The notes below the pieces were generated by a model. It saw nothing but the letters and a program-made list of their open reading frames with translations. It was not told the DNA's origin and searched no databases. Positions 506 to 60,240 of a stretch of 64,000 bases of DNA are shown here, piece by piece. The stretch lies in the NCBI GenBank assembly GCA_000004985.1, contig GG738846.1; one strand, written 5' to 3'. Both the position numbers and the translations under genes were made by a program. The first letter of the stretch is position 1. Each line of letters begins with the position of its first letter. This stretch comes from Naegleria gruberi (Eukaryota).

Positions 506-2143
506 ATGCCATTAACATATCAAAGAAAAATGTCAAACAGCACCACCTCAACTCACCCAAATGCCACTCCCATGCAATTAACTGCCGACCACATTGAATC
601 TTCTAATGACAACTCACCAACTCTGATAGAATTAAAAGAAGTTAACAACAAGGAAGAAGAAGAACAAACTCAACAACAAGAAACAAACTTTGAGGATGAC
701 AATGATGTCTGTAGTGATTCAGATAGTGTCTATGTTCAGGTTGCTACCAGAAAAACTCAACGTCTTACCCTCACTTCTATCAAACCACAAATTGACAAGT
801 TTCGAATAGATAGAGCTCAAAATTCATCACCAATTGCTTCCGGAAATGTTGCTGGAAACAATCTAACTACTGTAAAGAAACCAACAACCGAATCAATCTT
901 CACCAAAACAACTGCAAAAACAGGGAAATCTGGCAAGTCCTCTCTCTCTTCTGTCACCTTTCGAATTCCAACATGTTGTGGTATGATTGAATTGAATCTA
1001 GTGAGAGTCTTATCTCTATTGGGAATGTTATTGAATATTGGTGCATTCATTGCCATTGCAGTGATTGTTGGAAATGCTTTCAAATTGGATGCCAAGAAAG
1101 AAACTAATCTCCTCTTGCTCAGAACGGAATTCTTGACCAATTACTATAAAATAGATTGCATTGTCAAGACGGCATGTGTAACTGGTGATATCCAACTCGT
1201 TGCTGAATATAACATGCTGCAACCCAATGCTAGTCAGCAATTACTGGAATTGAAGAAGAATCTTCCGGCCGAATCTTTGAAAAATCTCAAATTGGATTTT
1301 GCCTCACCTCAATACGTTGGTCTGAACAATCTCATTATGGGTTATATTGCACAAGGAGATTTGGATTCTGCCAACTCTGTTCGAAAAAGTTTATCCTATC
1401 TCATTATGGATGGCTATACTAATATCCTTTTAAATATAGTTCGTACGGAAATTGATAAATTAAGTGAAGAGAAACAGGATTATTTGAGATTATTTGGAGC
1501 TGTCAATATGAGTATGGTTTTATTTGGTGTGGCTATTAGTGTGCCAATTGTCTTGTTGATTTTCGCCATTGCATTGTCGACAGATGTGGCCAGTAAGAGA
1601 AAGCTCAATAAGGCAACAGGTATCATGATTATGGAAGCAATTGCAAGTGAAAAGTACAATCCAATATTTAAAACATTTTGTGAGAAGGAATCATGTTTGG
1701 ATTATTTTACATTATTGGATAATTGTCATGATTATCATGAATTATGTGATAGAGCTCATGATTTGAGATATTCTAATCATACATATGGCAATGATCATTC
1801 AGAATTGAATTCTGCCTCATCAATTTCTGAAGACAAAATCCACAAGGAACAATTCGAAACCATTGAACGAAACAAGTATGAGGTGGCATTTAAGATATTT
1901 TCCGAATTCATTGATCCAAATGGTGAAACTCCAATCAAAACAAGTAAGATACTCCAAGACCGAGTAAAGAATGTATTGGATGAATTTAATGTTGGCAGCG
2001 TATTGGACGATGATTTGTTTGATGAATTGGAAAAGCAAGTGTGTGAAATGATTAGTGAGCACTTTATTAAATTTAAACAACAAATCAAACAAAAAAGAAG
2101 ACAAATTAATTCAAAAAACAAGATTGAAAAGGTCAATAAATAA
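506..2143 (+). CDS. membrane protein with tentative C-terminal RGS-like domain
   Basis: ATG at 506 sits in an A-rich context. The uninterrupted ORF is 545 aa and ends with TAA at 2141-2143. Two hydrophobic helices are present (VRVLSLLGMLLNIGAFIAIAVIVGNAF; MSMVLFGVAISVPIVLLIFAIAL). The C-terminal ~130 aa (…VAFKIFSEFIDPNGE…DDDLFDELEKQVCEMISEHFIKF) resembles the second half of an RGS fold, but this is a weak call. Confidence 0.5.
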   Translation: MPLTYQRKMSNSTTSTHPNATPMQLTADHIESSNDNSPTLIELKEVNNKEEEEQTQQQETNFEDDNDVCSDSDSVYVQVATRKTQRLTLTSIKPQIDKFRIDRAQNSSPIASGNVAGNNLTTVKKPTTESIFTKTTAKTGKSGKSSLSSVTFRIPTCCGMIELNLVRVLSLLGMLLNIGAFIAIAVIVGNAFKLDAKKETNLLLLRTEFLTNYYKIDCIVKTACVTGDIQLVAEYNMLQPNASQQLLELKKNLPAESLKNLKLDFASPQYVGLNNLIMGYIAQGDLDSANSVRKSLSYLIMDGYTNILLNIVRTEIDKLSEEKQDYLRLFGAVNMSMVLFGVAISVPIVLLIFAIALSTDVASKRKLNKATGIMIMEAIASEKYNPIFKTFCEKESCLDYFTLLDNCHDYHELCDRAHDLRYSNHTYGNDHSELNSASSISEDKIHKEQFETIERNKYEVAFKIFSEFIDPNGETPIKTSKILQDRVKNVLDEFNVGSVLDDDLFDELEKQVCEMISEHFIKFKQQIKQKRRQINSKNKIEKVNK

Positions 2144-2160
2144 ATAAAATTTAATATTAC

Positions 2161-3090
2161 TTTGTGATTAACTTGAAATGTTATTAACGAACAATCAAAA
2201 AAGTCCAAGAAAACAAAGTCAAAAGTTACCGTAGGTACAATTTTAACAACCAATCCACTATTTTACACTCCTCCACAAAACGTACTAAATAATAACAAAA
2301 AATAATGATTGAGAATATCATAACCTTTGTATAATATAAACTCTAACACTTTTAATAATTGCAAATTTTTTTGAAATTTGCTTGTTGCTACTTGTTTTAT
2401 TGTTAAAAGCTTAACGCTTACTGCGATCTAATATTGGTTTGTTAGAGGTTATCTTTTTCCACTCCTTTGAGAATTTGGATAATAGAAGGTTGTAATGATA
2501 AAGAAGAATTTAATAATTTAATAGACCAACATGGAATTGTTTTACAAAGCATAACAATATTAAGTTTAGTTCAATACAAAATCTAATTCTAATAACTTCG
2601 TTTGAAAAAAAAGGGTAAATACTACAATGTTAACGATTTACTTAACATAGGTTCTGTTGTTGCTATTGAGTTGTTAATTAAAATTAATAATTAATGTTAT
2701 TGTTGTTTCGAATTTAACTAACAAACCTTGAATCCAAACTTTTGAATATTGGTATTCGTTTTTCCAATAAGAAAGCTATTATTATTATCAGAGATAATTG
2801 ATTGTTGCTTTTAAATTTTGGTGGTTTTGTAGTGCTGATAAATTTGTTTGTTGTAAAAGGCTATTTTTATAAGAAAATCCTTTCCATGACTTTGAAATAG
2901 TGGTTTCTTTTTTAAATTGTTTAACCAAGGACTTTGCTAATTCGTTATTTGTGGTAAAATCAAAAATTTGGTCTTCTTGATGATGTAATATATGAAAATA
3001 AATTGACATATTTTTTTAAATAAACTATTTTATCATTACCCAATCATGAAAGGCTAATGGGGAGAGATTATATTTTGGTGTGGATGAATT
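2161..3090. repeat. tandem repeat unit copy 1 (module A 2161-2565 + module B 2700-3090)
   Basis: Module B is >95% identical to 3915-4235. Module A matches 3531-3735 except for two internal deletions in copy 2. It contains the 21-mer AAGCTTAACGCTTACTGCGAT at 2408-2428. Confidence 0.8.
2788..3009 (-). CDS. short ORF of conserved-N-terminus family (MSIYFHILHHQEDQIF…), 73 aa
   Basis: True ATG at 3009..3007 in a ttaaaaaaATG context. It lies inside repeat module B. Divergent paralogs conserve ~50 aa (…ELAKSLVKQFKKETTISKSWKGFS) at the protein level. Confidence 0.3.
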   Translation of the reverse strand: MSIYFHILHHQEDQIFDFTTNNELAKSLVKQFKKETTISKSWKGFSYKNSLLQQTNLSALQNHQNLKATINYL

Positions 3091-3242
3091 ATAATCCAAT
3101 GGCCAAACAATGAATGATTTTATTGATTATTTGTTTGAAAGAGATAGTGAACTAATATTTAGAAATTGCAAGAGAGGTCACAAAATTCAAAAGACCTTAA
3201 TGAAATAATAATGAAGAATTTTCTTTTCCAAAAAGAAATAAT

Positions 3243-3491
3243 TTAATCTTTAAAAGAAAATAACTTCTCAATTTGTTTAACAAAAGCTCCAATAGAAGAG
3301 AAAATCAATATTGGTGGTGATAAATTTGTTTTTTGTTTATCAGAAAATCCATGCCATAATTTTCTAGCGGTTTCTTTTTTAAATTGTTCAACGAAAGACA
3401 TTACTAATTCGCTATCTATAATGCTACTAATAACAAAACCAAAAATTTGATCTTCCTGATGATATAATAAATGAAAAGAATAACTCGACAT
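3243..3491 (-). CDS. short ORF, divergent family member (MSSYSFHLLYHQEDQIFGF…), 82 aa
   Basis: It is ~60% aa identical to the 2788-3009 ORF over the first ~50 aa, while the DNA is clearly diverged. Maintenance of the frame suggests coding. Confidence 0.3.
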   Translation of the reverse strand: MSSYSFHLLYHQEDQIFGFVISSIIDSELVMSFVEQFKKETARKLWHGFSDKQKTNLSPPILIFSSIGAFVKQIEKLFSFKD

Positions 3492-3530
3492 TTTTTTTTA
3501 ACTTTTTAGAGTATATTAATATCCAAGCAC

Positions 3531-4235
3531 TCTGTGATTAACTTGAAATGATATTCACGAACCATCAAAAAAGTCCAAGAAAACAAAGTCAAAAGTAACC
3601 GTAAGTACAATTTTATCACTCCTCCACAAAAATAAACTCTAACAAAATTTGGATAATAGAAGGTTATAACAATAAAGAAGAATTTGATAATTTAATAGAC
3701 CAACATGGAATTGTTTTACAAAGCATAACATATATCTCCTTCTTGTACGTCTCTTTATCCGATTTATAAATACCTTTAAAATTACATTTGCATACTCATA
3801 TTACACATCTATTTATAAACAAGCTCACCAAATCAAAAAATGGTAATCATAGAATCAAACGTCCACACAAGGACTCAGATATTGGAATGAGTTTTATGGG
3901 ATATACTGAAATTACAATTGTTGTTTCGAATTCAACTAACAAACCTTTGAACATTGGTATTCGTTTTTCCAATAATAAATTTGTTTGTTGTAAAAGGCTA
4001 TTTTTATAAGAAAATCCTTTCCATGACTTTGAAATAGTGGTTTCTTTTTTAAATTGTTTAACCAAGGACTTCGCTAATTCGTTATTTGTAGTAAAATCAA
4101 AAAGTTGGTCTTTTTGATGATGTAATATATGAAAATAAATTGACATATTTTTTTAAATAAACTATTTTATCATTACCCAATCATGAAAGGCTAATGGGGG
4201 AGAGATTATATTTTGGTGTGGATAAATTATTATAA
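3531..4235. repeat. tandem repeat unit copy 2 (module A' 3531-3735 + module B' 3915-4235)
   Basis: Direct repeat of 2161-3090, offset ~1.37 kb. The B modules are near-identical, including non-coding flanks. Confidence 0.8.
3847..4146 (-). CDS. short ORF of conserved-N-terminus family, 99 aa (near-identical to 2788-3009 copy, different C-terminus)
   Basis: It lies in repeat module B'. It is identical to copy 1 for 57 aa and then diverges through an indel. Confidence 0.3.
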   Translation of the reverse strand: MSIYFHILHHQKDQLFDFTTNNELAKSLVKQFKKETTISKSWKGFSYKNSLLQQTNLLLEKRIPMFKGLLVEFETTIVISVYPIKLIPISESLCGRLIL

Positions 4236-4790
4236 TCAATACTAATTACAATAAATCAACAATAAATTTGGAATATTTTATTTTTGAAATAATTCATTTT
4301 TTAGTTTATTTTTGGATTTAGATTTTGGCTTTTTGGTTCAATTTGGCTTTTTGCCGATTTTTTATTCACCTATATCCAAAAACTGGTTTGGGATGGATTT
4401 TGGATATTAATATACTCTCTATTATTAATAAAATTAACATAAACAAACCATTGAATACTTCATTATTAATATCAGTGGATCTATTTACTTTTGTTTTCAC
4501 TATTGAAAAATTCTTTAATCAATTAGGAATTAAAAGTTTCTTAATTGTTCCACTTATATATTCGATGAACCCAGTGGTGTCCATTAATTCGAATAGAAGA
4601 ATGTGATCATTTAGATGTTCTTTAACAATATCAATGAATCAACTTTGATAGTATTTATTACTATTTTACAATTATCTGATTCAACAGTGGAATCCATTAA
4701 TAATTATAGTGTTAGAATTAGGAACATGAGGAATCTGATTTCAAGAAGAGGAAATAATTTCTTATTTGTCTATTTTCTAACATGCTTGAT

Positions 4791-5048
4791 TCAATAGAAT
4801 TCAAAGAGAATGAGGTTCAAACTCTCTCCAAGCTGCAAAGAAATTGGTTTGATAGGATGAAGAAACTTTTCTAGATAAGATGTTGACGGTATTGTAGAAA
4901 ATCTATTCCATAACTTTGAAATGGTGGTTTCTTTTTTAAATTGTTCAACCAAAGACATTGCTAATTCGTTATCTATAATGTTACTAATAATAAAACCAAA
5001 AATTTGATCTTTCTGATGATACAATAAATGAAAAGAATAACTCGACAT
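4791..5048 (-). CDS. short ORF, divergent family member (MSSYSFHLLYHQKDQIFGF…), 85 aa
   Basis: ATG at 5048..5046. The track ORF 4791-5159 starts upstream at a non-ATG codon. It conserves the …LVEQFKKETTISKLW… motif. Confidence 0.3.
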   Translation of the reverse strand: MSSYSFHLLYHQKDQIFGFIISNIIDNELAMSLVEQFKKETTISKLWNRFSTIPSTSYLEKFLHPIKPISLQLGESLNLILFEFY

Positions 5049-5073
5049 TTTTTTTTTAATAGTTTCAATATTA

Positions 5074-5811
5074 TTTTTAATTGTTACTTTCGGTAGAAAC
5101 ATTTGGATCATAATTGGTAAATTCAATATTTGCATTCTTTGTTCTGGAAAATTCACCATGCTTCACTTTTAATTTACATGTGGCATTAAAGTGGCATCCT
5201 TGTTGTGCCATTTTACAAACAACTCGAGCAATATTTTTACAATCATCAATACCAGAATGATGTTTGCCAAGGAGAGGTAATTTCAGTGCATTTAACATTG
5301 TCAACATGCCATTCACCTTTTCCATATTGTAAAACTTGGCAAATACATCCTTGACATTGCACCATTGTGTGAAATGAGATCCAATTAAGGAAATTGTTTG
5401 TTTCTCAAAGAAAACTTGATGTGGAATCATTGTTTTTAAGTCCCAATCTTTGAGAATTGTTAAAAACTAATCAAATTGAAAATATTTACCTCCACAAGTG
5501 GCCATCAGGATGTTATCTTTGGTTGGTTTTTCTCCTAAATGAGACATTAACCATTCATTGTGTCTCTTGAGTGCTTCTTCGAATGAAACTCCAGATTCGA
5601 CCATTTCTTGAGTAATTCCAGTCAATTTGGTGCATTCTTCATTAATTTTTGGAATTCTTCTTGTTTTTACATAGTTTTGAATTTCATCCACAACAACCAA
5701 TTGCTTTTCACTTTCAAATTTTAACAAGACTGATGGAAATTCAATAATTTCCATATCATAATTTCTATTAGTTTTACAATCGTCTGCAAAAACAGCTTCA
5801 AAATCCAACAC
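5074..5811 (-). CDS. ERI-1/3'hExo-like DEDDh 3'-5' exonuclease (2 exons seen: 5811..5490, 5447..5074; intron 5448..5489, 42 nt)
   Basis: Exo I motif VLDFEAV. Splicing restores the conserved TCGDWDLK Exo II motif (…MATCG|DWDLKTMIPHQ…). Exo III motif HSGIDDCKNIARV. Donor GTAAAT and acceptor AAG. Stop TAA at 5074-5076. The 5' end is unresolved: there is no in-frame ATG in the exon, and a candidate ATG at 6089..6087 is separated from it by a (TCT)n tract with an apparent frameshift. Confidence 0.6.
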
Positions 5812-6355
5812 ACAAATATACTTGAATGCAGTGGAACTACTACTTCCACTTGATGACTCTGCAACAGGAGCTTTACTAGTAAATGCATTTGATTTTGTTG
5901 ATTCGGAATGAAATCTTCTCTCTGGTTTATCTTTTTGATTGGCATTACTTGTTGTATTTACACTCTTAAATTGTTTACCACCAGAGAAGAAGAAGAAGAT
6001 GAAGATTTAGTGGCAGTGGTCTTTTTACTTGTTGTTTTTGATGAAGAAGAGTTATTTTGATGTTCTGATCTGAAATTGAATTGTGACATTTTTTTGTTGT
6101 TTGGTTTCAGACGTGGTTGTTTGAAAGAAATGTTTTATTTTGAAATTGAAGGTTAAAATTCATGATGTTTCTCAATTTTGAAGTTGAAGCTAGCAAAGAG
6201 GTCTTGGTGGACACAGTTGTAATGAAGTAAGTTTATCGATTCCTTCTCGGCGTGAATCCACATGAATTCAACGTTGAATATTGTACATCATTAGCTTATA
6301 TTGAACTGACTTTTTTATCCTCACAACAATATTGGATTCCTGTTCATGATTTCTT

Positions 6356-6835: not shown

Positions 6836-7688
6836 TCAATTACATGTAAGTGAATAGTTGGGATTTTCAATCCAATCAAACAAGTGCTCATGTGGAAAGA
6901 TGGGATTTCCACAATTTGGATTTGAGAGTGTCTCGTTTGTGGTGAGTAACATTAAATCTAGAGATGGTGTATGTTTTGGGCTTCCCATTGCATTAAAGTG
7001 AAGCACCCTAACACAAGATGTGATGCAGTTTTGATGACCAGCATATTGCAAGTGTAGTCCACATTCCATTTCATGAATCCATGCTCTATTCGTTATTCTA
7101 TCGAGAGTATTGAGCACATCCTGATCAGCCAATAGTGTCTCTCCNNNNNNNNNNNNNNNNNNNNNNNNNNNNNNNNNNNNNNNNNNNNNNNNNNTACAGA
7201 TACTCCCAGGCATAGATTAGACCATCAAAACCATGAACCAAGAAGGTATCTGCATCCAAAAACAAGAAATGTGCCAATTTATGTTGAAAGAATTCAATCA
7301 GCTTTAACTTCTTGTTGGCAGAGGCAGCACTATAATGTGTCGATTTGGCGTCAACAGACAACTCGTTCGACTCATAGAATTTCAACGAAACTCTCTCACA
7401 AGAACCAAATCTCTTCACAATACAATCGATGGTATTGGTTGAATTCATGAAAACATGTAGAGTTACATGGTGGGGAGGCGAGGGACATGATGGAAGAGCT
7501 AACAATGGAGAGGCAACCTTTTCTGAGTTTTCATAGATTACCACAACATGCATGAGATGTCCAGCTCCAGCAGCACCAGGTTGTTTTGAAGAATATTTCT
7601 GGTGCGAGTAGAGAAAATGTCTTTCCAGGAGGAATGTTATGAGAGAGAAACAGAGAATTGGCAAAATGACTTTAAATTTATAATTCAT
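6836..7688 (-). CDS. type-II-membrane/secreted protein with DXD motif (possible glycosyltransferase); interrupted by 50-N assembly gap 7145-7194
   Basis: ATG at 7688..7686, followed by an N-terminal hydrophobic anchor (KVILPILCFSLITFLL) and an LFLDADTFLV motif. The same frame continues on both sides of the gap to a stop at 6836-6838. Confidence 0.4.
7145..7194. other. assembly gap (50 N)
   Basis: Run of N. Confidence 1.
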
Positions 7689-7989: not shown

Positions 7990-8300
7990 CACACTACTTG
8001 ACTTTAAAGAACCTGGTGTAGTAGCGAGTGCTAAACACAAAGCTGTTGGAAATACATCATTTCGCTGTTGACTTCATACAAACAGCATCCAAAGTGTTAG
8101 TCTAACTTGTTTTTGGTAATTTTAAGGTACAAATCAGGAGATTTTTGAAAGCTTGTTGAACAAAGTGGACTATCATATAAACATCAATAGAAAACCATGG
8201 TGAATGAGTGTTTATTACTCTACTAACTCCATGTTGTGATTTTCTAGCCACATTAGGCCTAGGATTGATGGTGTACCATGATACAAATACTTGAAGTGTT
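7990..8300 (+). pseudogene. degenerate partial inverted duplicate of the 5' coding region of the adjacent receptor-like kinase gene
   Basis: On the + strand, 8030-8066 (GAGTGCTAAACACAAAGCTGTTGGAAATA) and 8160-8300 align to the kinase sense sequence (ESAKHKAVGNN … IETSIENNGDCEYVAVSLLTSWPCCDFLAT, encoded on the minus strand near 11450-11760). Indels and stops disrupt the copy. The track ORFs 8102-8311(-) and 11447-11635(+) share this similarity as antisense reads. Confidence 0.55.
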
Positions 8301-8429: not shown

Positions 8430-11400
8430 TTATATATTGAATTTGGAAAGAATATTTGCTAAACGATCTGCAACCTCATCAAACGAAGGTCTCTCATCTG
8501 GATTTTGATCCCAACAATCTTTCATCAAGTCAATATACTGATCCACAACTGAAACTAAAATGTCAATATCCATATATTTCTTGTCATCTTTCATATACTC
8601 CTTAATCCATACCATACTGATCTCTCTTCAACAGTAGAGAATGGAATTTTAGGTCTGAATCCTTTGGAAACTTTGAGTGGAATACTGAAACTATTCACAT
8701 CTGTTATCTCAGACTTTGAAAATCTATTAATTTTTTCAGAACTTTGATTAATGTATGGATTCTCCTCAAAAAGTAACTCATACATTACAATGCCAAAACT
8801 GTAGACGTCCAACTTGTTAGAAATTGAAATATTACTGTCACCAATCAATTCCTTAATAAATTAATTATGAATAATGTTAGTACAAATACTTACAGGCTTT
8901 AAAGACAAGTTATTATACTATTGTTCAATTAATTAGTATTACTTACAGCCATATAAAGGATACTTCCTAAATTGGTAGTCATATTGGTTGAATTGGTATT
9001 TCCAATCAATTTAGACAATCCAAAATCACAAACCTTGGGTTGCATATTCTCATCTAATAAAATGTTAGCACTTTTTAAATCTCTATGAATAATCATTTTC
9101 GGTTTCAAGTTATGTAAATAACTCAAACCGTTAGAAACTCCAAATAAAATACGAATCTTATCAATTAGTTTGATCATTTTTCTTTTCAATCGAAGTTCAC
9201 TAATTAACTTATCCAATGAACCACCTCCAAGATATTCCATAACCATTAACTTTCTTCGATCTGTGATACAAACACCAAAGAATTGTATAACATTTGGATG
9301 TTTCAAACTGTTGAGTAAAAGAACTTCTCTTTCAAATGTATCTTCCTCCTGTTCTATCTCATCATCTTCATTGTAATCTACACTTTTAATAGCAACACTA
9401 ACTTGCTTCCATCTGGCTTTGTAAACCTGACCGAAACCACCTGAACCTATTTTCTCAACTAATTCTAATTCTTCTATTGGAATCAAATAGGATAATTGCT
9501 TTCCTCTTTCATCCTCTAATTCTAATTCAATATCGAGAAGCTTTTTTTCCATTTCCATTTCTGTCTTTTTTCTCTTATTCCAATACCTGTTTTTGTAAAT
9601 ATAGAGAGCTACACTAACCAGTAAGAAAAATACAAGACATGAAACCAACACTCCAACTGGAACTAGAATTTTGTAAAGCAGATTTTCATCCACATTACAA
9701 AGCTTTCCTGAAAACCCATCATGACAACTACAATTATTAGGACCAATACAATCACCATATCCAGAGCAAGATTCCACACCAATATTTCCAAAACAGATAG
9801 GAGTTTCACATTGCTTGCCAACATACATTGGTAAACTGTTATTGAATTGTTTGCAAACACAATTGTCCTTACTAACACAATTGCCATTTCCTCCACAAAC
9901 CAATTGATCTGTTGATAGGGTAGATATTGAATAACATGTAGGAATGGAGCAATCTGGACCAGCACTTCCTGTTAGACAACTACAAGTATCATAGCCAACA
10001 CAAAATCCAGAACGTTGGCACACTGTGAAATTATTCGAATCAATACCAAAACAACTAGTATGTTCACAATTATCTCCAAAATAGTTCTCTTGACAAACAC
10101 AATGGTCTGTTGAAACACATTTGCCTCTTCCAGAGCAAACTTGATTTGATTTTGATAACACCTCATAGCACATGAAGGAAGAGCAATCATTTCCAAAATA
10201 ACTAGTCTTGCATTTGCAGGTATTATAATCTACACAATTCCCCCAACCACTACAAACAAATGATTGATTGGTTGACGGGATGTTAAAACACGTTGTAATG
10301 TTACAATGAGGTCCAAAATAGCTGTTATCACACTGGCACTTGTCTATTCCAATACATTTACCGTGATTACATCCAGATTCTAATTTACCAAAACAAGTAA
10401 ATTGAGAACAATTTGTATTACCATAACCATAATTGCACACACAATAATCTGAAGATTGACAAATGCCATGTCCAGAGCAAACACTCGTGTCATTATAAGC
10501 AATTCCAAAACAAGATTTGTAATTTTTAGAGCTGTAAGACTGAATCAATAGATTTGAACGAGGAGAACTATATGCATTTCCTGTAAGGTCAATTAACCTT
10601 CCATAATAAACATATGAAACAGCAACGTATGAATTGGTTGCAGATATAAAAACTGAGTTCACATTCGTACCATTCACACGCAAAATCCATTCTGCATCCC
10701 TTAAATTGTTATCCAATGATTGAACTATAATTTCATTGTTTCTACAAGAATCAAACCTTGCTGCAATAAAAACAAGTGACTCGGTACCTGTCACTGAATA
10801 AATTGTAGATTTACAAGAACTCAACTGATTTGAAAGCATTACATTTTTTGTTTCAAGTTTTGGTAAACTCAATTCCACACATTCTAAAATAGTATTTGAA
10901 CCACACAGAATAACAGATGCTGTTCTTCTAACTATATATGTGTTCACTGTTGTAGAAAGATAAGATAGAATAGTACCATTTTGATAAAGTAGCATGACAT
11001 AATTTCCATTTAAACCATTTTTCTCAATTTTGACCAAGTTATTATCTGAATCTCTCCATGTGGTTGATTCACCTTGTGTGAAAAATCCAGTTAACACTAA
11101 CAAATCCATTCCACTAACTGATACTGGGTATATTCCAGTTACTAGTCTTGGATTTTTTCCCATGTCTTCAGTTGCAAAAGTTGTATCAATACTTTGAACA
11201 ACCCATTGTCTACTCCAATCTTTCAACCTTAACATTAAAGCGAAGGTATTGTAAACTTTTCCAGCTGAATCTTCATCACGAAAAACTTCAACTCCAAAAC
11301 TATTCGAATCACCAACATATCCAGTTACAAACAAGGAAGATCTATCGAATGCCAAACTCAAAATATTACCATAATAAACAACCATTTGTTGAGCCCACAG

Positions 11401-11805
11401 TCTTTCACCACTCGTGGCATTGTAAATCATCAATCCTGGACCTCCTGTGGCAAGAAAATCACAACAGGGCCATGAAGTTAGCAGAGAAACAGCCACATAT
11501 TCACAATCACCATTATTTTCAATTGATGTTTCTATGGCAGTCAATGTCGTTCCACAAGCTTCCAAAATCTCTGATTTGTACCATAAAATTTCATTGGTGG
11601 TCAAATCCATCTTTACCAAAAACATGTTACACTGATCATTCTTATACTTTGGATGCTTGATAATAATAGTTGGCGAAATACCAATGGAATTTCTAAAAAC
11701 ACCTCCAAAGAATATATTATTTCCAACCGCTTTGTGTTTAGCACTCTCTATTGCTCCAGTTTCGTTCAAGGTGGTGAAAGGAAAGAGCAAAATGAACCAA
11801 ACCAT
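8430..11805 (-). CDS. receptor-like protein kinase: signal peptide, large extracellular region, ~10 Cys-rich EGF/laminin-type repeats, TM helix, kinase domain (3 exons: 11805..8947, 8851..8599, 8554..8430)
   Basis: ATG at 11805..11803 with a signal-like MVWFILLFPFTTL. Repeated CxxGxGxCxxxDxCxCxxxYxGxxC modules. TM helix LVPVGVLVSCLVFFLLVSVALYIY. Kinase motifs GSGGFGQVYKA, HRDLKSANILLD, DFGLSK and DVYSFGIVMYELL. Intron 1 is 8852..8946 (GTAAGT…TTATTAAG). Intron 2 is 8555..8598 (phase-1 GTATAT donor; acceptor TTTTAG, or CAG six nt later at 8549-8554). Splicing restores the subdomain XI motif …YIDLMKDCWDQNPDERPSF. TAA at 8430-8432. Confidence 0.65.
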
Positions 11806-22661: not shown

Positions 22662-23948
22662 TCACTTCCTTCCAAATCCACCACATTCACATCTCACACC
22701 ATCACCACCACCACTTTGATTTTTACTGTATTTATGGGTACTACTGGTATTCCTGGCAGATTGAATGTGTTTTGAATTGTTAGATCTGATACTACTGGTG
22801 GTACCATTCTGATCAGATCCTTGATTTTCCTTGAGAAGGTGAATGGGTGTGTAGAGAGCCAAAGCAGTGAATGCAAAAACAAGAATTCCCAAAGTGTTAC
22901 ATATTGAATATCCAAGTGCAAAATGACTGAGTGCTGGATCTTGTTGAGCAACACCACTGCCACCTGCAAAAGCTTCGAATAGAAAACATCCAAATAATCC
23001 ACTTTGTAAAATTAGTACTTTAACAATGGAATTTCTCTTCTTTTTTTGATCTTCAGCTATTTTTGAAATTGTTTTAAGAACTGCATATGCTGCAATCTAA
23101 TTAAAATTGTAAATTGACTCGTAAACATTTTGTAAACATACCACCAACATTGTAATTTGAGTTGTCACCTCCAACACAAATATTATAAAACATAAAATAT
23201 AGCCGTACGTGACCAAATCATCTCCAGCATAGGCCAATCTATTTAAAATAGTGACAATACTCACAAATACAGTAATCAAAACCAATCCAACTGAATTAAT
23301 ACCTGTAAAAATTGTTACAATTTTTGTAAAGTAAAATAATTTTTTGGATCGAAGTGTTCCACTCGAGAGTCTAAATGTTTCAATGAAAACCAACGTTACA
23401 AACCAAACGATAATGACCATCACTTGAACATTCATCAATGCCATACATATTTCAAGGGATTCTGCAATTGCATAAATGACAATTTGTTCGAATGGAATTC
23501 CAACTTCATGGGGTGTTAGTCCGAGTGTATTGTTGAACCAGAGTAGAGTTTGAAAACCCTCAATTATTGTTTCATTATTTCCATACCTATCCGAAAAATA
23601 ATCTTGATATCTGAATCCAAATGAAATGTTAAGACTATCGAAAATAATCCTCGAAATTAACAAGACAATTTCCAAGCAACACATAACCAACACTCCATAA
23701 ATAATTCTTTTTTGATTTTTCATTAAATTTCCCCTTTCCCGCCTCAACTTGAGCAGGAAGTAAATGATAAAGAGGAGTAGACCAATAGTGATGAACAAGT
23801 AGATGATGACTATTGTCATTTCAATGTATGATACGATGAGTGGTTCAAGTCTTAGGAGAGATGTTAGTACAGGTGGGAGAGTATTGTTTGACAATGACAT
23901 TGATAACAGTGATGATTCCAGTTGCGGTAGTGGTGATGAGGTTGTCAT
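22662..23948 (-). CDS. seven-transmembrane (GPCR-like) membrane protein, 2 exons (23948..23142, 23096..22662)
   Basis: ATG at 23948..23946, with seven hydrophobic helices. The in-frame TAG at 23099-23097 lies inside a 45-nt intron (23097..23141, GTATGT…TTTTAATTAG, phase 0) that joins two track ORFs in frame (…TQITMLV|IAAYAVLKTI…). The C-terminal end is uncertain because ORF 22502-22690 continues in a +1 frame. Confidence 0.5.
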
Positions 23949-24202
23949 TTTGTTTTTTTTCTAATGGAATTTTGTAGCTCTTATTAAAAGTTACTATTAG
24001 TGACAGTTTGAAAAAAAACCATCTCTCCCATCTTTAAATGTTTTGACATGGTATGGTGTATTTTTAATCCTTGCAAATAATTAAAGGAAACCTTGATAAA
24101 TAAAAAACAAGATACCATTTCCAAACAAAGTAACTTTTTTGGGTTGTAATATTCTTTCTGATGAATTTAATTTCAAAAAAACAATTAAAAATATCAAAAA
24201 AA

Positions 24203-24478
24203 ATGTCAATTTATTTTCATTTATTATTTCACCAAGAAGACCAAATTTTTGGTTTTTTTATTCAACAACAAATTAATTTAATTCCATTACCTTTGGGTTT
24301 TTTGATAAATTCATTTAATAACAAAACTAATAGAAATGAATTTGAAAAACCCTTCTTCAAGCGCGTTGCGTGTGTTTGTGAAATTGGTTGTGGCCACTTT
24401 TTGATCCTGATTATATTTGGCAAGGGCTATATATATGGAAACGAGTTCAAATTTTTTCTAATGTCGTTTCTATCATAA
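24203..24478 (+). CDS. short ORF of conserved-N-terminus family, subfamily C (MSIYFHLLFHQEDQIFGFFIQQQIN…)
   Basis: ATG at 24203 in an aaaaaaaATG context. 24195-24400 is near-identical to 24716-24910. Confidence 0.3.
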   Translation: MSIYFHLLFHQEDQIFGFFIQQQINLIPLPLGFLINSFNNKTNRNEFEKPFFKRVACVCEIGCGHFLILIIFGKGYIYGNEFKFFLMSFLS

Positions 24479-24728
24479 ATAGGAACCAAAATACAACAAA
24501 CCAACATCGTCTAAGTAGTTGGAAGATGTTAACAAATCTGATCTCAAAAAATTCATAAATACATTCATCATTTGTGTAAAAAAGTGAACATATTTAAATG
24601 TTACATTGTAAATTAATAAAACAAGATTGAGAATTAGTAATAATTATGATGAAGATGACATCTGTTCCAAGCTTAGTGGAATACTTTTAGACAGATGCTA
24701 TTTAATAAATAAAAATATCAAAAAAAAA

Positions 24729-25049
24729 ATGTCAATTTATTTTCATTTATTATTTCACCAAGAAGACCAAATTTTTGGTTTTTTTATTCAACAACAAATT
24801 AATATAATTCCAATACATATGGGTTCTTTTATAAATTCATTTAATAACAAAACTAATAGAAATGAATTTGAAAAACCCTTCTTCAACTACGTTGTGTGTA
24901 TTTGTGAAATTGGTTATAGATGGCAAGTTGTGTCTGTTTTCCACTATTTTGATTGGTATGTTCAAGTTTACAAGATCATCAATATAAGCTCCTTCAAAAC
25001 CTTGTATTTCATAAACCATCAAAAATTCATAAATATCAACAATATCTGA
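24729..25049 (+). CDS. short ORF of conserved-N-terminus family, subfamily C, second copy
   Basis: ATG at 24729. It is identical over the first ~66 aa to the 24203 copy. The inverted 21-mer ATCGCAGTAAGCGTTAAGCTT at 25526-25546 lies ~480 bp downstream, in the same relative arrangement as in the 2.1-3.1 kb unit. Confidence 0.3.
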   Translation: MSIYFHLLFHQEDQIFGFFIQQQINIIPIHMGSFINSFNNKTNRNEFEKPFFNYVVCICEIGYRWQVVSVFHYFDWYVQVYKIINISSFKTLYFINHQKFININNI

Positions 25050-25556: not shown

Positions 25557-25606
25557 NNNNNNNNNNNNNNNNNNNNNNNNNNNNNNNNNNNNNNNNNNNN
25601 NNNNNN
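25557..25606. other. assembly gap (50 N)
   Basis: Run of N. Confidence 1.
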
Positions 25607-27399: not shown

Positions 27400-27575
27400 A
27401 ACGCGCAATTGACGTCAAGAATTATCGTCAATTCTTAATGATTTATTATCAATTTTTGACGTCAAAAATTGATAATAAATTGATAATGTTTTGTATCAAA
27501 TATTGATGAAAAAACATCAATAATTACGTCAAAAAATTCATAATAATTATTGTCAATTATTGACTAAATTCCAGC
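27400..27575. promoter_or_regulatory. cluster of TGACGTCA (CRE-like) palindromes and TTGATAAT/ATTGAC repeats
   Basis: Perfect TGACGTCA at 27410-27417 and 27467-27474. TTACGTCA at 27524-27531. The inverted GTCAAT…ATTGAC pair at 27552-27566. Interspersed TGATAATAAATTGATAAT repeats. No ORF. Confidence 0.35.
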
Positions 27576-28066: not shown

Positions 28067-29235
28067 NNNNNNNNNNNNNNNNNNNNNNNNNNNNNNNNNN
28101 NNNNNNNNNNNNNNNNNNNNNNNNNNNNNNNNNNNNNNNNNNNNNNNNNNNNNNNNNNNNNNNNNNNNNNNNNNNNNNNNNNNNNNNNNNNNNNNNNNNN
28201 NNNNNNNNNNNNNNNNNNNNNNNNNNNNNNNNNNNNNNNNNNNNNNNNNNNNNNNNNNNNNNNNNNNNNNNNNNNNNNNNNNNNNNNNNNNNNNNNNNNN
28301 NNNNNNNNNNNNNNNNNNNNNNNNNNNNNNNNNNNNNNNNNNNNNNNNNNNNNNNNNNNNNNNNNNNNNNNNNNNNNNNNNNNNNNNNNNNNNNNNNNNN
28401 NNNNNNNNNNNNNNNNNNNNNNNNNNNNNNNNNNNNNNNNNNNNNNNNNNNNNNNNNNNNNNNNNNNNNNNNNNNNNNNNNNNNNNNNNNNNNNNNNNNN
28501 NNNNNNNNNNNNNNNNNNNNNNNNNNNNNNNNNNNNNNNNNNNNNNNNNNNNNNNNNNNNNNNNNNNNNNNNNNNNNNNNNNNNNNNNNNNNNNNNNNNN
28601 NNNNNNNNNNNNNNNNNNNNNNNNNNNNNNNNNNNNNNNNNNNNNNNNNNNNNNNNNNNNNNNNNNNNNNNNNNNNNNNNNNNNNNNNNNNNNNNNNNNN
28701 NNNNNNNNNNNNNNNNNNNNNNNNNNNNNNNNNNNNNNNNNNNNNNNNNNNNNNNNNNNNNNNNNNNNNNNNNNNNNNNNNNNNNNNNNNNNNNNNNNNN
28801 NNNNNNNNNNNNNNNNNNNNNNNNNNNNNNNNNNNNNNNNNNNNNNNNNNNNNNNNNNNNNNNNNNNNNNNNNNNNNNNNNNNNNNNNNNNNNNNNNNNN
28901 NNNNNNNNNNNNNNNNNNNNNNNNNNNNNNNNNNNNNNNNNNNNNNNNNNNNNNNNNNNNNNNNNNNNNNNNNNNNNNNNNNNNNNNNNNNNNNNNNNNN
29001 NNNNNNNNNNNNNNNNNNNNNNNNNNNNNNNNNNNNNNNNNNNNNNNNNNNNNNNNNNNNNNNNNNNNNNNNNNNNNNNNNNNNNNNNNNNNNNNNNNNN
29101 NNNNNNNNNNNNNNNNNNNNNNNNNNNNNNNNNNNNNNNNNNNNNNNNNNNNNNNNNNNNNNNNNNNNNNNNNNNNNNNNNNNNNNNNNNNNNNNNNNNN
29201 NNNNNNNNNNNNNNNNNNNNNNNNNNNNNNNNNNN
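28067..29235. other. assembly gap (1169 N)
   Basis: Run of N. The six-frame ORFs spanning it are artefacts. Confidence 1.
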
Positions 29236-29728: not shown

Positions 29729-31090
29729 TAAATTGAAATTTATTGACTTGGAAATTTATTTGTTATTTGAAATTGGAAAAATTTCCAAGTTCCCTCCTGC
29801 TAAGACAACTTTTCGCTTGTTTGACGAAAATAGCTTGACGCAAAATCGTCAAAGTACCAGCACGCTTTGACAGTAAGTGTTTAGCGGGATTGTTAGTTGT
29901 AAAAATCAAAGAACTTGGAAAAATATTTCAAAAATATTGGAAAAACATCAGGTATATCACGACTCTGTTGATTCTTGGAGTGATTTCACATCTATTAACT
30001 CCAAGAATTTCACCACATCATCTCATCATGATTTAAATAATAGTATTAATAGTAATTTTTGGAATTTAATCCTTCATCATGATTTGGAAATAATTTTATT
30101 ATTTGGAAAAATTCAAGTTGGTACATCATCATCGGAACAACTACCAACCATCATCATTGTTATTTATCATCATTTTAATAGTAATATTTGTGGAAATAAA
30201 TCTGATAATAGTAATATTTTAGTGAAATTTAATATTTTCACTAAAATCATCATCACTGCCAGATTTATATGATAATTTGGAAAACTTTCAATCTAGTGTT
30301 CAGCATAGTCAATTCCATCAGGTAAAATCACTTCCGAACATTTTCCTATTGGTTATCATGATGTTAGGTACATGTATATTTTCAACATGTACATGGACCA
30401 TAACTCAACATGTACTTCACCAACTTGGAAAATGTCTTTCATCACTACTATTCATACATAATAAACAATATATTTATTATCAGATTTTCATCATTTTGTG
30501 TTTTTGCCAACTTCGGGTTATTCATGGTCCCAATCATGATTCATGCCAAAAGTACACAGTCAATCTTCTTGAAACATTAATATACTTTTATTAGTACTAT
30601 TGTAGATGTACCATATCAATTATTTCGTCTTGTTTCGTTGAAATCATGAAGATTTTGATTTTTCTGTTTTTAATTAAATTTCACATCACATACACCATAT
30701 TTGTTGATGTAAAAAAGACTAGTTACATGTAAATAATCCATTGTTGATTCTATAATCATGTTTTATTTTGTTTTTGTGTATTTAGGTTTTTGAAATCTTG
30801 CAAATTATTCTGAGGTTGTTCTTCATATAAATATGATTTCTCACTTCATGATATGAGGAGGGATTGATATCATGATTGTTTGGAAGTGTTGTACAAATTT
30901 TGGACACTCCCTGAATTGAAATCAGGAAGAAAGAGTCTAATCTTTAGCACCATATAAAATATGACATTTGACTATGGTTTTGGTCTTATTGGTTGTTTCC
31001 TCAAATATTGGAAAAGGAGAATGATAAACACTTTTTCTCAACATATTCTTTATTTATGGAAGTTATGACCATAAAAATGAATTTCGCATT

Positions 31091-31139
31091 ACCAAACCAT
31101 GCGAATTTATTTAGTTGAAATTTATTCGCATGGTTTGGT
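31091..31139. repeat. perfect 16-17-bp inverted repeat hairpin (ACCAAACCATGCGAATT … AATTCGCATGGTTTGGT) with 16-nt loop
   Basis: Seen directly in sequence. It is intergenic. Confidence 0.7.
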
Positions 31140-33119
31140 AGAAGTAATTTCATTAGAATAATCCCCTTTAATATAGGTAAAGGTCCTGTTGTTATACTTG
31201 TAGGTTGTATCAGTATATTAAATTTAGTAATCATGATGGCTTGATATTGATGCCTAGGCCAAAATACTTAATAATAGGTTCATAGATTTGTTGGAACACT
31301 ATGGGAACCAATTGAATTATTTCACTTAATCATTGGTTCTAAAAGATTTTCTAGACAATGGATGAAAGTACAACGTTTCTTTTTCAAGAATGATGATAAG
31401 GACACTAGAAATTATGATCAAGTTAAGAAGAAGGTAATGAGGTTAGAAAAAGACACCAAGCTTCAATTGCAAAACTTAACATTGGCATAAACTGGACTGC
31501 AATTGAAAATTACTGAATCCTACCCTATTAACGAAGAGTACATTAGTATTTATAATAAGGTTTCAATAACCGAAGAAGAGTTTCAAAAAACAATACTACT
31601 AAGATTAATAAATATATTTAAATATATCAACAACTCCAAAAAACAACACCAAGAAGAGCAACAACACAAACAAGAAGACCACGGAAACTGAACAAGAAGA
31701 AGAATTTGAAAATTTAGTTCTTAGAAAATATTGGCGAATATTCCAATGCAAGAATTAAGGTTGGAGTGGTACAACAACAATAGATAGAAACTCTCTGATA
31801 ATTCAAAAAAAGTAGAGATACTTTCTCAACCGCATCTTCTTATGTGTTTATCATTTGTTTGAGTGGTGAAGGATAGTAAATTATCAAATCTAAAGTGCAG
31901 GTAAATGAAAAAAAAGTAGAGATACTTTCTCGATCAAATCGTGTCATCCTTGTCCAGGGACCATGCTAATCTTCTCTGTATCGTTTATCCAATTTTCTAG
32001 CGTCCCTCGAGGGGACTTATCAATATAGGATTTGGTCGATGACTAAAAGTTGAACAAGAAAATATAGTAGTTTTTATTGTGGTTTTGAAAAATGACCTTT
32101 AATTTAATTAGTAAAAATATATTGGAAAGAGAGTGGCTACTTTCTTCTGGTACTATTAAATCACTAATAAACACAATATTTATTATCAGTTTTTCATTAT
32201 TTTGTGTTTTGGCTTGGAGCCAAACCTTGATTGATTCACTCCTTCAAGATTGATCAAACTCATTGCGAACAAGATATTAAAATATTAAATTCTTATTGTT
32301 TCTTTTAATTTCTTTCACCTTAAATCTAACAATTAACCTCATTTCCATAAACATCACTATGATCAAATTAAATTTCAAAGATAACCAACTTGTTCAACAT
32401 CTACACATTCTAGTGATCACACTCATATCAATTAATCCATTTTTCATTTTCAAATTTTTTACTTTCCAAAGTTTCCCAACAAAAATGTCAAAACGTAATA
32501 GGAGTAGTTTATAAGCTGAACCTAAGGTGCCAACTCAAAAGACTTACAATAAAACAAATAATCATAAAGGCCAATATAATAGCAACAGGCGGCAGTCACA
32601 TTAAGGATAAAGCAGGATACAGCATTGTGACAGACAGGGAAAACCTTCAAATCAGGCATCATATGCCCAAAATGCTGAACTACAAGCTTATCCATAAAGC
32701 TAATAAAGAAACTGGCTTCAAACTATGAATGGAGCAAAGATCTTAACAAATATGTAAGCATTTTGTAACAGCCATTTTTTCAATCAAGTGAAGATACTCT
32801 ATTGTCTTTTAGTTTTACAACGTGATATTTCTTTAGATGCACAAGTAGCTCATGCTCTCACAAACGAGATGAAAATCTCTCTTCCCTTCTACAACTCTCA
32901 ACTTTGAGATGTTTGATTTAATCAGCGAAAAACAACGAGTTCCAATCTTATTAGTGTGTGAGTGAAGATTATAATATTGGTGAATGAAAGTGAAATTTCC
33001 AAATATTCAACTTGACACTTCACTTGGCCCAACTATACTATTAAACAGCGTCTATCTTTTTGTGGCGTTCAATTTTAAAAACAATAACAACTTTATTTTT
33101 CATATTATAAAATTATAAT

Positions 33120-49925: not shown

Positions 49926-50776
49926 TGGGTTTTTTTTATTGTTGTGGAAGATTGTACAATGAATGGACCAACAGTTTTTCATCATATTATCAACGAAATG
50001 CTCCTTCTCTCAAAAACAGCGCCCCAATATCGATAAGCATGCCTTGCTTATTAAGAGGACTCATGTTTCGATTTGGAAAATTAATATTTTCCGAGAGGTG
50101 ATCTTTGGAGAAATATAAAAGTGAGACTATTATTGATTTGACTCCAAATAATATTTGATTAGAAACATTTTATAACTGGAATGATACCCTTAAATCCAAT
50201 TCAAATTGCAGGTTTAAATATCAGTAAAACTTCTAATTAAAATTTACATATATTAATCATCGAAACTCTTCAATTTTGATTTAATTCCAATGTTGCAATC
50301 AAAAGAATAAAGTGAATCAGCTAGAGTCTTTCTCAAAGGCATTAACACGGTTTTAAAATCAATTAATCAGAATGGATCTCTAACTTTTGTAGATCATATC
50401 AAACAATTGAAAATTCTTATCATTTCAATGGTCCATCTTGACAATGAGTTTTCAGAAATAAAACTGCTTGAAACATAACAAGGTGTTTACTATAGATATA
50501 CCATTTCTTACAAGTAATGAATTGACTAAAATCTGACAAACGTATAATCAAACTCATATAAAAGAGAGATTATTCTGCCCTAGATGGAAATCAAGAAATG
50601 GTACTTGGAAATGTTTATTTGGATTGAAATAACCCAAAGTATGACACGATATAATAATCATCATTATTACTAAACATTGGAATTTAAGGTTATTAATAAA
50701 TGAAGAAAATTAAGCCTTAAATTTGTAATATTTTGGCGGGAAAGTTTTTACAGAAATTTATTTTTAATTTAAAAAA

Positions 50777-50989
50777 ATGTCACAAATCTATCACATGTTA
50801 ATTCATCAAGAACACCAAATTAATTCTTTAAAATGTGATTTAATCTTCAAAATCCTCCCAGTCTTCAAAATTGATCGGCGATTTAATAAGGCTTGCAAAC
50901 TTGTCAATAATTTCAAAATAAGCCTTTTTCAAGTCAAAGTCAGAAGAATTAACATTTCTTTCTTTTCACAAAAGACACACAATTCATAA
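50777..50989 (+). CDS. short ORF of conserved-N-terminus family, subfamily D (MSQIYHMLIHQEHQINSLKCDL…)
   Basis: ATG at 50777. The 5' ~60 nt is homologous to the 24203/3009/60237 copies. The ORF runs into the left TIR of the adjacent element. Confidence 0.25.
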   Translation: MSQIYHMLIHQEHQINSLKCDLIFKILPVFKIDRRFNKACKLVNNFKISLFQVKVRRINISFFSQKTHNS

Positions 50990-52539
50990 TTATCGCTTAG
51001 ACAAACAAAGGTGTTACATGAATCACACTTGCATCAGTTGGATTCATTATTGACTTTGGTATCAAGCCTCTTATACCAAGCCATTCTCGTAACACCAGAT
51101 AACCCTGTTGCTTTTTGAATAACCTTGCATAACTTAATGGTGTAATCTAAGGTTCTTTCTTTGGCGGTTCTGAAAAGCAATTTCAAATCAAAATTTTCAT
51201 CCTTAGGATCTAGAATTTGATTTGAATTAATTATTTCTAATAATTCCTTGGTGGAATAGAGTTTCATTTTTTTAAAAGTACTTTACTATTGAAACGTTCC
51301 ATTATTATTCATATTCTTCTCAATTATTTAATATTAATCTAACAGTTTATTATTATTATTATTAATAAATTGTTAAATGTCTACTAATGATATTGAATTG
51401 GAATGGTTTGATTCATCCTTAGATGAAAATCTAAAATTCAACCAACAAATAAACCAGAAAATGTTTAATGGAAAAAGGTATTGCTTAGTAATGATAATTG
51501 GATCATTTCAACAAGATTTAAGAACTACCAATTGAATCAAATTGAAAAATCACATTATTATCGGAATTTCTCAATCCAGTTAAAAGACAGAGAATTGGTC
51601 TCCTATCAGAACAAGTATCTGCTTGTATCCTTGTTTATTTGTACCATGAAAGAAACGTAGTATTTATTATTGCTGAGAGTTCTGGTTCTGTCTCTCTTTG
51701 TCTTACAATTATGGATGAACTCTATTCTGTTGTGAGTAATAATAATAACAAGGATTAAAGAATATTAGTAAAATGAGGAAATGTATCAACAAGGATTTAT
51801 GGAGAAACTTCTCCATAGCCTTTTTTTAATCCCCTTTAAAATGGCTGGATGTAGAATTAGCCTCACCGATTATCTTTCCCAGTTCAGAAATGATTTCAGT
51901 TCATATTCTTGTCCTTCCAAATACCAAAACACTTACCATTGACAGAAATTCCTCAAGGATAATCAATTGACAATCCGATTTGTATTCACCCATGTAGGAA
52001 TTGTTTGGTTGAGAGAGGAATTTTGGTTTTCCACCTCTCTCCTTAGTAGTTGATAGATTTTGAATGGTATGATTCGAATTGAGTTGCTGGAGAGATGTTG
52101 TTGGCAAAAGTATAATAAGGTGCTACCACTGTGACACAAAACACACTTTTACAAAATAGAAAATTTTATTAGAATGCAAGTTGGTGGAATTTATGAAACT
52201 ATTTTTATTTCTATACGAAAGACTTATTTAGAAAGTCTGATTTCGAATATTTTTCTTAAAGAGAGGATTCACATTGTTCAATGGAATAGAAGAACGATTG
52301 GATAGTGAATTGAGGGAATTATCTCATAAGAAAACTGGGAAATTTAGGCTCATTTTGTCCATAAATCCATATCCCAGATACAATTCCTCATCATTTTACT
52401 ATTAATAATAAATTATAGTCTCTTATATCATAACGACCTTAGAGACTAGCTCAACAATGAATCCAACCGATGCAAGTGTGATTCGTGTAACACCTTTGTT
52501 TGTCTAAGCGAAAATTATGAATGGTGTGTCTTTTGTGAA
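50965..52539. mobile_element. TIR-flanked DNA-transposon-like element (~1.58 kb), probably non-autonomous/degenerate
   Basis: The 89-bp terminal inverted repeats at 50965-51053 and 52451-52539 are ~93% identical (TTCACAAAAGACACACAATTCATAATTATCGCTTAGACAAACAAAGGTGTTACATGAATCACACTTGCATCAGTTGGATTCATTATTGA). The interior holds only short ORFs (51034-51267(-), 77 aa, with a helix-turn-helix-like GLSGVTRMAWYKRL; 51901-52107(-)). No clean target-site duplication is visible. Confidence 0.55.
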
Positions 52540-52572
52540 TTAATTAAGTGTGCTTCAGAACCACTTCCAAAT

Positions 52573-60237: not shown

Positions 60238-60240
60238 TTT
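60126..60240. repeat. repeat copy without insertion (empty-site paralog of 59437-59660)
   Basis: See the paired feature 59437-59660. Confidence 0.7.

Follow-up and report, generated by a model that had tools for sequence, protein, structure and literature searches.

Nine small open reading frames with a common N-terminal module in Naegleria gruberi: a possible young and fast-turnover family

In a stretch of 64,000 nt from the Naegleria gruberi genome (assembly GCA_000004985.1, contig GG738846.1; hereafter the window), we observed nine short units that begin with the same 5' module and carry a small open reading frame (ORF). The start codon, the 18–25 N-terminal codons and the openness of the frame have persisted through a degree of divergence that they should not have survived under drift. 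Behind the module, the amino-acid sequence is unconstrained, and individual copies are now evolving at a neutral rate. Judged from the DNA, we tentatively favour the view that these units form an unannotated, young and fast-turnover family of small ORFs (micro-proteins or proto-genes) of the N. gruberi lineage, since this view fits both the kept start and frame and the unconstrained remainder; we give it slightly less than an even chance.

Each unit consists of an A-rich leader with the ATG, 18–25 conserved codons and then 20–90 codons of variable sequence. The module consensus is M-S-x-Y-x-F-H-x-L-x-H-Q-E-D-Q-I-F. A profile search (nhmmer) gave exactly nine matches in the window, with E-values from 5.9e-16 to 1.1e-10, and the next match was at E 0.13; a 27-nt degenerate pattern of the module matched six times against 0.00 expected. 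Four copies are located within 2788-5159 and two near 24.2–24.7 kb; another is found at 50777, and the last two at 59654/60237. The initial annotation had reported the cluster at 2788-5159 together with further copies at 24203, 24729, 50777 and 60237, all of which were borne out by the profile, and had overlooked the ninth one, 59654(-). We grouped the copies into types A to D. The D-type module (50777/60237/59654) is more diverged, MxxQI(Y/N)HxLxHQExQINSxKCDL, and 83–85% identical among the D copies. Only M1, H6, L8, H10, Q11 and Q14 are invariant in all nine copies. N-terminal peptides expected from the small ORFs would include (Ac-)SIYFHILHHQEDQIFDFTTNNELAK and SSYSFHLLYHQEDQIFGF.

The four minus-strand ORFs of the first cluster were present as described earlier, with lengths of 73–99 aa. 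These are A1 (2788-3009, 73 aa; module 2953-3017 including the A-run), B1 (3243-3491, 82 aa; module 3433-3499), A2 (3847-4146, 99 aa; 97% identical to A1 up to codon 57) and B2 (4791-5048, 85 aa from the module ATG at 5048). The B2 ATG is located 29 nt past the stop (5077-5079) of an upstream ERI-1-like exonuclease gene; the mechanically called ORF, 4791-5159, has 37 extra upstream codons that overlap the end of this gene in another frame. On the plus strand are C1 (24203-24478, 91 aa; module 24196-24258), C2 (24729-25049, 106 aa; module 24721-24783) and D3 (50777-50989, 70 aa; module 50772-50841). The homology units of the C copies are 24180-24389 for C1 and 24704-24915 for C2, the latter being 93% identical to the former. 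D1 (59959-60237, minus strand, 92 aa; module 60179-60240) starts 155 nt past the stop codon of an upstream cyclase gene. D2 (59523-59654, minus strand) has 43 codons, since an insertion past codon 25-26 has cut it short; were this insert absent, D2 would read on through 59357-59477 as a 62-aa ORF.

Several observations point to a maintained reading frame. In all nine copies the ATG directly follows an A-run, as it does at the confirmed N. gruberi starts in the window; outside the large ORFs, only 24 ATGs of the window have A in at least six of the seven upstream positions. Within the first 70 codons, no stop is found in frame 0 of eight of the nine copies (the exception is D2), compared to 26 and 53 stops in frames +1 and +2. 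Counting the conserved 5' parts once for each type (186 codons), we found 0 stops against 13.1 expected from the rate of 0.0705 stops per codon in frames +1 and +2 (P = 2e-6). Length also exceeds expectation in the seven tails, which are unrelated to one another (Poisson P = 0.005; Fisher combined P = 0.002), and just 4.3% of the ATG-started ORFs in the intergenic background have at least 70 codons.

The insertions and deletions (indels) tell the same story. Each of the seven indels in the first ~57 codons has a length divisible by three (P = 5e-4): 3, 12, 3 and 12 nt in the A/B comparison, 3 and 6 nt between B1 and B2, and 3 nt in the D type. Frameshifting indels were observed only near the 3' ends. 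In a simulation at the observed A-B divergence, both 57-codon cores stayed open with a probability of only ~0.03. At the invariant H, L and Q codons of the module, the types differ by synonymous changes only (CAT/CAC, TTA/TTG, CAA/CAG), and the ratio of nonsynonymous to synonymous rates (dN/dS) of the module alone is 0.09–0.58. By the minimal signs of coding sequence, namely a native start context, a frame-specific lack of stops and in-frame indels, the units look coding, or look to have been so until recently. The earlier proposal that these are not dead repeats was upheld in the sense of stop-riddled copies, since openness is specific to frame 0 and these indels leave the frame intact.

We next considered how the copies are related to each other. 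The A and B copies are parts of a tandem duplication on the minus strand (2159-5071) of two units of ~1.4 kb each, unit I running from 5071 to 3529 and unit II from 3514 to 2159. This pair takes up the entire convergent intergenic region, 2.9 kb long, from the stop of the gene 506-2143(+) to the exonuclease stop (5077). In each unit, the B ORF is followed by the A ORF and then by two conserved blocks without ORFs on that strand (2472-2560/3646-3735 and 2159-2248/3529-3618). The first of these blocks is open on the plus strand (2472-2556/3646-3730, reading IWIIEG[C/Y]N[D/N]KEEF[N/D]NLIDQHGIVLQSIT...) and may be a relic exon of another gene. The description of two ORFs as embedded in near-identical repeats agrees with A1 and A2, which match at 97–98% of positions over about 260 nt. 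For B1 and B2 the identity is 90% over 161 nt, and for the A and B types 72–78% over 166–203 nt. A and B are older paralogs whose homology is limited to ~190 nt, from the A-run to codon ~59. The figure of ~50 conserved residues given for these ORFs was too high, because the four A/B copies all agree in only 28 of the 57 aligned columns, with an A-B identity of ~65%.

The homology between the other copies is shorter and ends abruptly. C1 and C2 have 212 nt in common (93%), after which their tails are unrelated. D1 and D2 share 79 + 53 nt, and D3 shares only ~70 nt with either of them. Across the A, B and C types, only 61–80 nt are common, 83–90% identical to C; the module identity among these types is ~87–91% and the bodies are not alignable. 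The ATG-to-ATG spacing is 482 nt for B1-A1, 526 nt for C1-C2 and 583 nt for D1-D2, or ~475 nt for the last pair when the insertion is left out. A tblastx comparison of the cluster regions with the window revealed nothing past these known paralogies.

The C-terminal differences arise from frameshifts, a deletion, an insertion and a fusion to an antisense gene fragment. A2 has a 68-nt deletion relative to A1/B1, which shifts the frame into a new tail of 42 codons. D2 is interrupted by an insert of ~105 nt (59474-59582) that resembles a MITE, a miniature transposable element with inverted repeats. The insert carries perfect terminal inverted repeats of 12 bp, GAGGGGATGGAA (59478-59489 and 59567-59578), and TTAA/TAA duplicated at its flanks; it is missing from D1 and is single-copy in the window. 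The D3 module joins, to within ~2 nt, a partial copy of the gene 52573-53280 in inverted orientation. This duplicate (50853-51053 versus 52451-52946, the start region of the gene) consists of blocks with 84% and 94% identity, the intervening 290 nt being gone. Because the module abuts this inverted duplicate, the D3 'protein' past codon ~24 is the antisense strand of the gene 52573-53280. The initial annotation had described a shuffled N-terminal module or 5' exon. The shuffling is consistent with the unrelated downstream sequences and the sharp homology boundaries; the exon part was not borne out, as there is no consistent splice donor.

Orthologous DNA of another N. gruberi strain was found in two contigs (L001 and L005) of the metagenome assembly ENA ERZ929261, in which C1, C2 and B2 are all in place, without any empty site being observed. 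The identity of L001 to 23401-24820 is 97.5%. Over 276 nt, the C1 ORF in this contig has seven substitutions (five nonsynonymous, two synonymous) and an insertion of 2 nt that shifts the frame, and the adjoining gene has five substitutions in 548 nt. L005 spans codons 1–39 of B2 and the last exon of the exonuclease gene; the four substitutions in the exon are all synonymous, while the five in the 117 nt of B2 are all nonsynonymous. When pooled, the ratio of nonsynonymous to synonymous changes (N:S) between the strains is 10:2 for the small ORFs (3.05% per nt) and 3:6 for the flanking genes (1.0% per nt). The pooled dN of the small ORFs, ~0.03, equals the dS of the flanking genes; the small ORFs change between the strains at about the neutral rate. 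We also observed that C1 of the other strain agrees with the C2 state at a cluster of three sites (24287, 24291 and 24293) and its C2 has the C1 state at 24804, a pattern that reads as the signature of short gene-conversion tracts between neighbours. L005 also lacks the 104 nt at 5489-5592, inside an exonuclease exon that is open in NEG-M, the reference strain. This length is not a multiple of three; a misassembly, a deletion polymorphism or an intron that went unrecognised could each explain the difference.

Contig L006, which comes from a second species of Naegleria, includes the exon of the cyclase next to D1, and most columns of this exon are identical to NEG-M. The module was not present in the 378 nt read 3' of the cyclase stop in this contig, where a different ORF is found (MLVVASWKICLVAVVLG...); in NEG-M, in contrast, D1 begins at 155 nt. 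The exon of the cyclase catalytic domain has two canonical GTAAGT...AG introns in L006 (44 and 47 nt; ~60830 and ~60760 of the window), both missing from NEG-M, a difference that points to introns having been lost or gained between closely related species.

Searches for relatives of the small ORFs had the following results. In 5.8 billion proteins, two word-indexed profile searches had a sole match (P0001), which is the other strain's ortholog of the C1 ORF. When 1.84 billion representatives were searched exhaustively with HMMER, the sole match was spurious, a bacterial repeat protein with a score added up from 11 weak stretches. No Pfam family was found at E<=10 for eight ORFs. The best matches in PHROGs (E 0.37) and, by profile, among PDB sequences (E 0.33) were not significant. 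In DNA scans with a 30-nt degenerate module pattern, we observed two chance matches in JGI metagenomes and none in IMG/VR, and we found nothing relevant in the literature on Naegleria repeats, MITEs and small ORFs. The earlier description as lineage-specific and of no known family was consistent with the protein, Pfam, PHROGs and PDB searches. From this lack of homologs and the missing module downstream of the L006 cyclase, the family appears, as far as can be seen, to be unannotated and confined to the N. gruberi lineage.

If the units are a small-ORF family, the following course of events would account for them. The small ORFs would be transcribed and translated now, or would have been until recently. 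Selection would keep the start codon, the N-terminal segment, which may have a function, and the open frame, but not the remaining amino-acid sequence. The family would have grown by local tandem duplication, first of the B-A pair, then of the whole B-A block and then of C1/C2 and D1/D2, with a spacing of 480–530 nt, and ectopic gene conversion between neighbours would have kept the 5' ends alike. New tails may have arisen via deletion, frameshift or fusion to downstream DNA (A2, the C1 ortholog and D3), and copies would be lost through insertion (D2). B2, C1, D2 and D3 are probably already evolving neutrally, either drifting or dead.

A number of results weigh against this family being made of genes. 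Purifying selection on the encoded sequence was detectable neither between paralogs nor between strains. The dN/dS values are 0.61 (p = 0.25) and 0.33 (p = 0.044) for A versus B and 0.73 (p = 0.43) for B1 versus B2. The differences between paralogs are spread about evenly over the codon positions ([8,9,8], [6,6,8] and [6,4,4]), and C1 and C2 differ by six nonsynonymous and no synonymous changes. Purifying selection on the ~50-residue core, as claimed in the initial annotation, was thus not sustained: dN/dS is 0.33–0.73, one of three pairs reaches p = 0.04, the codon positions are even and N:S between the strains is 10:2. Between the strains, the small ORFs evolve ~3-fold faster than the flanking genes (rate test p = 0.01) and differ from them in N:S (Fisher p = 0.03). 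Their codon-usage log-odds are -0.11 to +0.07 per codon, compared to 0.21 +/- 0.09 for 75-codon pieces of real genes, which is at or under the 5th percentile of the latter, and their GC content of 26–30% is like that of intergenic DNA. The B2 start, at 29 nt from the upstream stop, has no room for a promoter, and the D3 tail owes its openness only to the chance that its source gene has an open antisense frame. None of the small ORFs is among the annotated N. gruberi proteins in the databases searched. For the 57-residue core, AlphaFold predicted a single helix with low confidence (predicted local distance difference test score 64; predicted template modelling score 0.33).

Many of these results are what would be expected from a decaying, non-functional repeat, which is the serious rival of the small-ORF family. 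In such a case, the units would be 5'-end pseudogene fragments of one or more once-functional small genes that were spread by segmental duplication and are drifting, and the open frames would be a leftover of recent origin and gene conversion. The near-neutral rate between the strains with N:S of 10:2, the C1 frameshift, the substitutions even over the codon positions and the intergenic-like composition all agree with decay. So do the unconserved C-termini, the visible rearrangements of A2, D2 and D3, and the location of the C cluster next to assembly gaps. However, the absence of stops (P = 2e-6) together with seven of seven indels in frame is hard to obtain by drift at an A-B divergence of 20–28%. 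All nine copies retain the start codon, including those in which nearby bases changed (D1 versus D2), and no intact 'parent' gene was found in the protein databases searched. We consider decay unlikely on balance, at somewhat better than one chance in four.

It is also conceivable, with a low probability of about one chance in ten, that the module is a portable 'start cassette'. Its leader, ATG and N-terminal segment, the last being functional and possibly an H-x3-H helix that binds metal or a tag for recognition, would have been recombined before arbitrary DNA and would repeatedly seed new translated ORFs there. Snapshots of the process would then be seen in the D3 chimera and in the tails of the A/B, C and D types, which are unrelated but open. 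Such a cassette would work as an inbuilt engine for the birth of micro-proteins, and the whole would be equivalent to a leader-plus-hypervariable-payload peptide system in a free-living heterolobosean.

Three further explanations are less likely than decay, and we regard each of them as improbable. One is that the module belongs, as a terminal or internal segment, to a mobile element of a non-autonomous kind (MITE, Helitron-like or SINE-like, the last being a short interspersed nuclear element) with differing internal or captured sequences. The homology units, which are short (~75–210 nt), end abruptly and lie dispersed through AT-rich intergenic sequence, are reminiscent of such elements, D3 adjoins a captured inverted gene fragment, and a bona fide MITE-like insertion occurs in these regions. 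Other results speak against this explanation. For a DNA transposon or MITE, none of the nine modules has an inverted partner and the orientation is uniform within each cluster. An inverted-repeat scan of 2000-6000 revealed only weak arms (70–82%), unrelated to the unit ends. No target-site duplications were visible at the C1/C2, D1/D2 and A/B boundaries, which could be placed only within a few bases. For a SINE or another retroposon of the non-LTR (non-long-terminal-repeat) kind, no tRNA-like sequence that could serve as a head was found in the window (ARAGORN), and no structured RNA. The A-run is 5' and not 3' of the module, where it is the normal start context, and a 3' poly-A is missing. 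The copies are alike at the 5' end and unlike at the 3' end, the reverse of 5' truncation. The maintenance of an ORF is also unexpected of a terminal repeat. The initial annotation had itself named a transposon terminus as a way in which it could be wrong; we saw no terminal inverted repeats, target-site duplications or poly-A tail that would point to it.

A family of hypervariable peptides under diversifying selection, in which an N-terminal leader or recognition sequence precedes a variable active part (toxin-like or like ribosomally synthesised and post-translationally modified peptides, RiPPs), has a similarly small chance. It would account for the conserved N-terminus, the variable rest, the tandem clusters and the maintained ORFs. 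The excess of nonsynonymous changes is also in its favour: N:S is 5:0 in B2 against 0:4 in the adjoining exon, and the pooled 10:2 differs from that exon at p = 0.008 (Fisher). However, the pooled dN of ~0.03 is not above the neutral rate. By inspection, the ORFs have no signal peptide, cysteine framework or conserved cleavage site; frameshifts are tolerated, and the tails look like translated AT-rich DNA.

The least likely of the three, by a shade, is that the 55–75 nt act as DNA or RNA, such as a core promoter or leader for non-coding transcripts, a small-RNA gene on one strand or the other or a protein-binding site, and the ORF is incidental. The module is indeed better conserved (~87–91% among A, B and C) than anything downstream, and on the reverse strand UGAUGA (C-box-like) followed by a T-run can be seen by inspection. 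The C-box-like motif is broken in the C type, however. We looked for a structured RNA or small nucleolar RNA and found no Rfam match at the gathering threshold in the window except U6, and none even at E<=1 in 2100-5200. RNAalifold gave no consensus structure on either strand (0 pairs in sense, 4 in antisense, without compensatory change). A DNA or RNA function would also leave the frame-specific lack of stops and the in-frame indels downstream unexplained.

A spliced leader or shared 5' exon was rejected, as there is no consistent donor (the A type has GAT and not GT at the module end), the A/B homology runs on in frame for ~40 more codons and no Rfam spliced-leader family matched. A satellite was likewise rejected, as Tandem Repeats Finder reported only four trivial micro-arrays of 7–16 nt in 2100-5200; the ~1.4-kb two-copy repeat is a segmental duplication.

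If the small ORFs are translated, they would be an unannotated, fast-turnover micro-protein family in which only the 18–25-residue N-terminus is stable, and would mark a gap in the Naegleria gene catalogue. They would also offer a compact natural system for the birth of small genes, their diversification by frameshift and fusion, their homogenisation by conversion and their loss. If they are not, the units are a low-copy dispersed repeat that annotators should mask. In neither case do we see a tie to a known function, a known mechanism or a long-standing question.

The genomic setting is as follows. Five long ORFs of the window are exact annotated proteins of N. gruberi NEG-M (EFC50102, EFC50104, EFC50105, EFC49895 and EFC49897), all on one scaffold of ~1.0 Mb. 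Given these matches and the U6 gene described below, a prokaryotic or viral source was rejected. The window has the character of compact, AT-rich eukaryotic nuclear DNA, with a GC content of 34% in coding sequence and 26–28% in the region of the small ORFs. Runs of N (assembly gaps) are present at 7145-7194, 25557-25606 and 28067-29235. Two of them are located just downstream of the C1/C2 cluster, in a gene-poor stretch at 25–30 kb, which suggests repeats that broke the assembly. A GC reading of 13.5% at 28–30 kb is an artefact of the N run. A perfect 40-nt palindrome with the centre GACGTC (27441-27480) and an imperfect 51-nt one (82%; 31090-31140) are also in gene-poor sequence. A full-length U6 small nuclear RNA gene (31912-32016, minus strand; 76.6 bits, Rfam) is bracketed by two 62-nt direct repeats (30446-30507 and 32151-32213) that are 86% identical and 1.7 kb apart. 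Inverted repeats of 53 and 175 nt, 75–85% identical, are found between 8002-8280 and 11418-11770, one arm being upstream of the ORF 8929-11805(-) and the other within it.

Among known systems, proto-genes and young de novo or orphan small ORFs form a continuum that has been described for yeast and Drosophila. The Naegleria set resembles them in its short ORFs (43–106 codons), its intergenic-like composition and codon usage, its restriction to one lineage, its lack of annotation, its weak or absent purifying selection and its fast birth and death. It is unlike them in being multi-copy with a common N-terminal module and long-term maintenance of the frame, and a non-coding origin is only putative.

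The precursors of the Amanita MSDIN RiPPs and the cone-snail toxins likewise have an N-terminus conserved at the nucleotide level, a variable rest and clustered paralogs. The Naegleria ORFs, however, are by inspection without a signal peptide, processing site, follower peptide or cysteine framework; their dN is not above the neutral rate and frameshifted tails are tolerated. In the oomycete Crinkler (CRN) and RxLR effectors, one N-terminal module stands on unrelated C-terminal parts, apparently by recombination at the boundary, as in the present units. The Naegleria ORFs are much smaller, have no secretion signal and no recognisable C-terminal domains, and N. gruberi is a free-living amoeba without a host. 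Finally, MITEs and other non-autonomous transposons are, like these units, short, dispersed in AT-rich intergenic DNA and abrupt in their homology ends. The units differ from them in having no terminal inverted repeats or visible target-site duplications, and in their constant orientation within clusters and maintained ORF; the MITE-like sequence at 59474-59582 is a local example of the form that a genuine element takes, and the module units do not share it.

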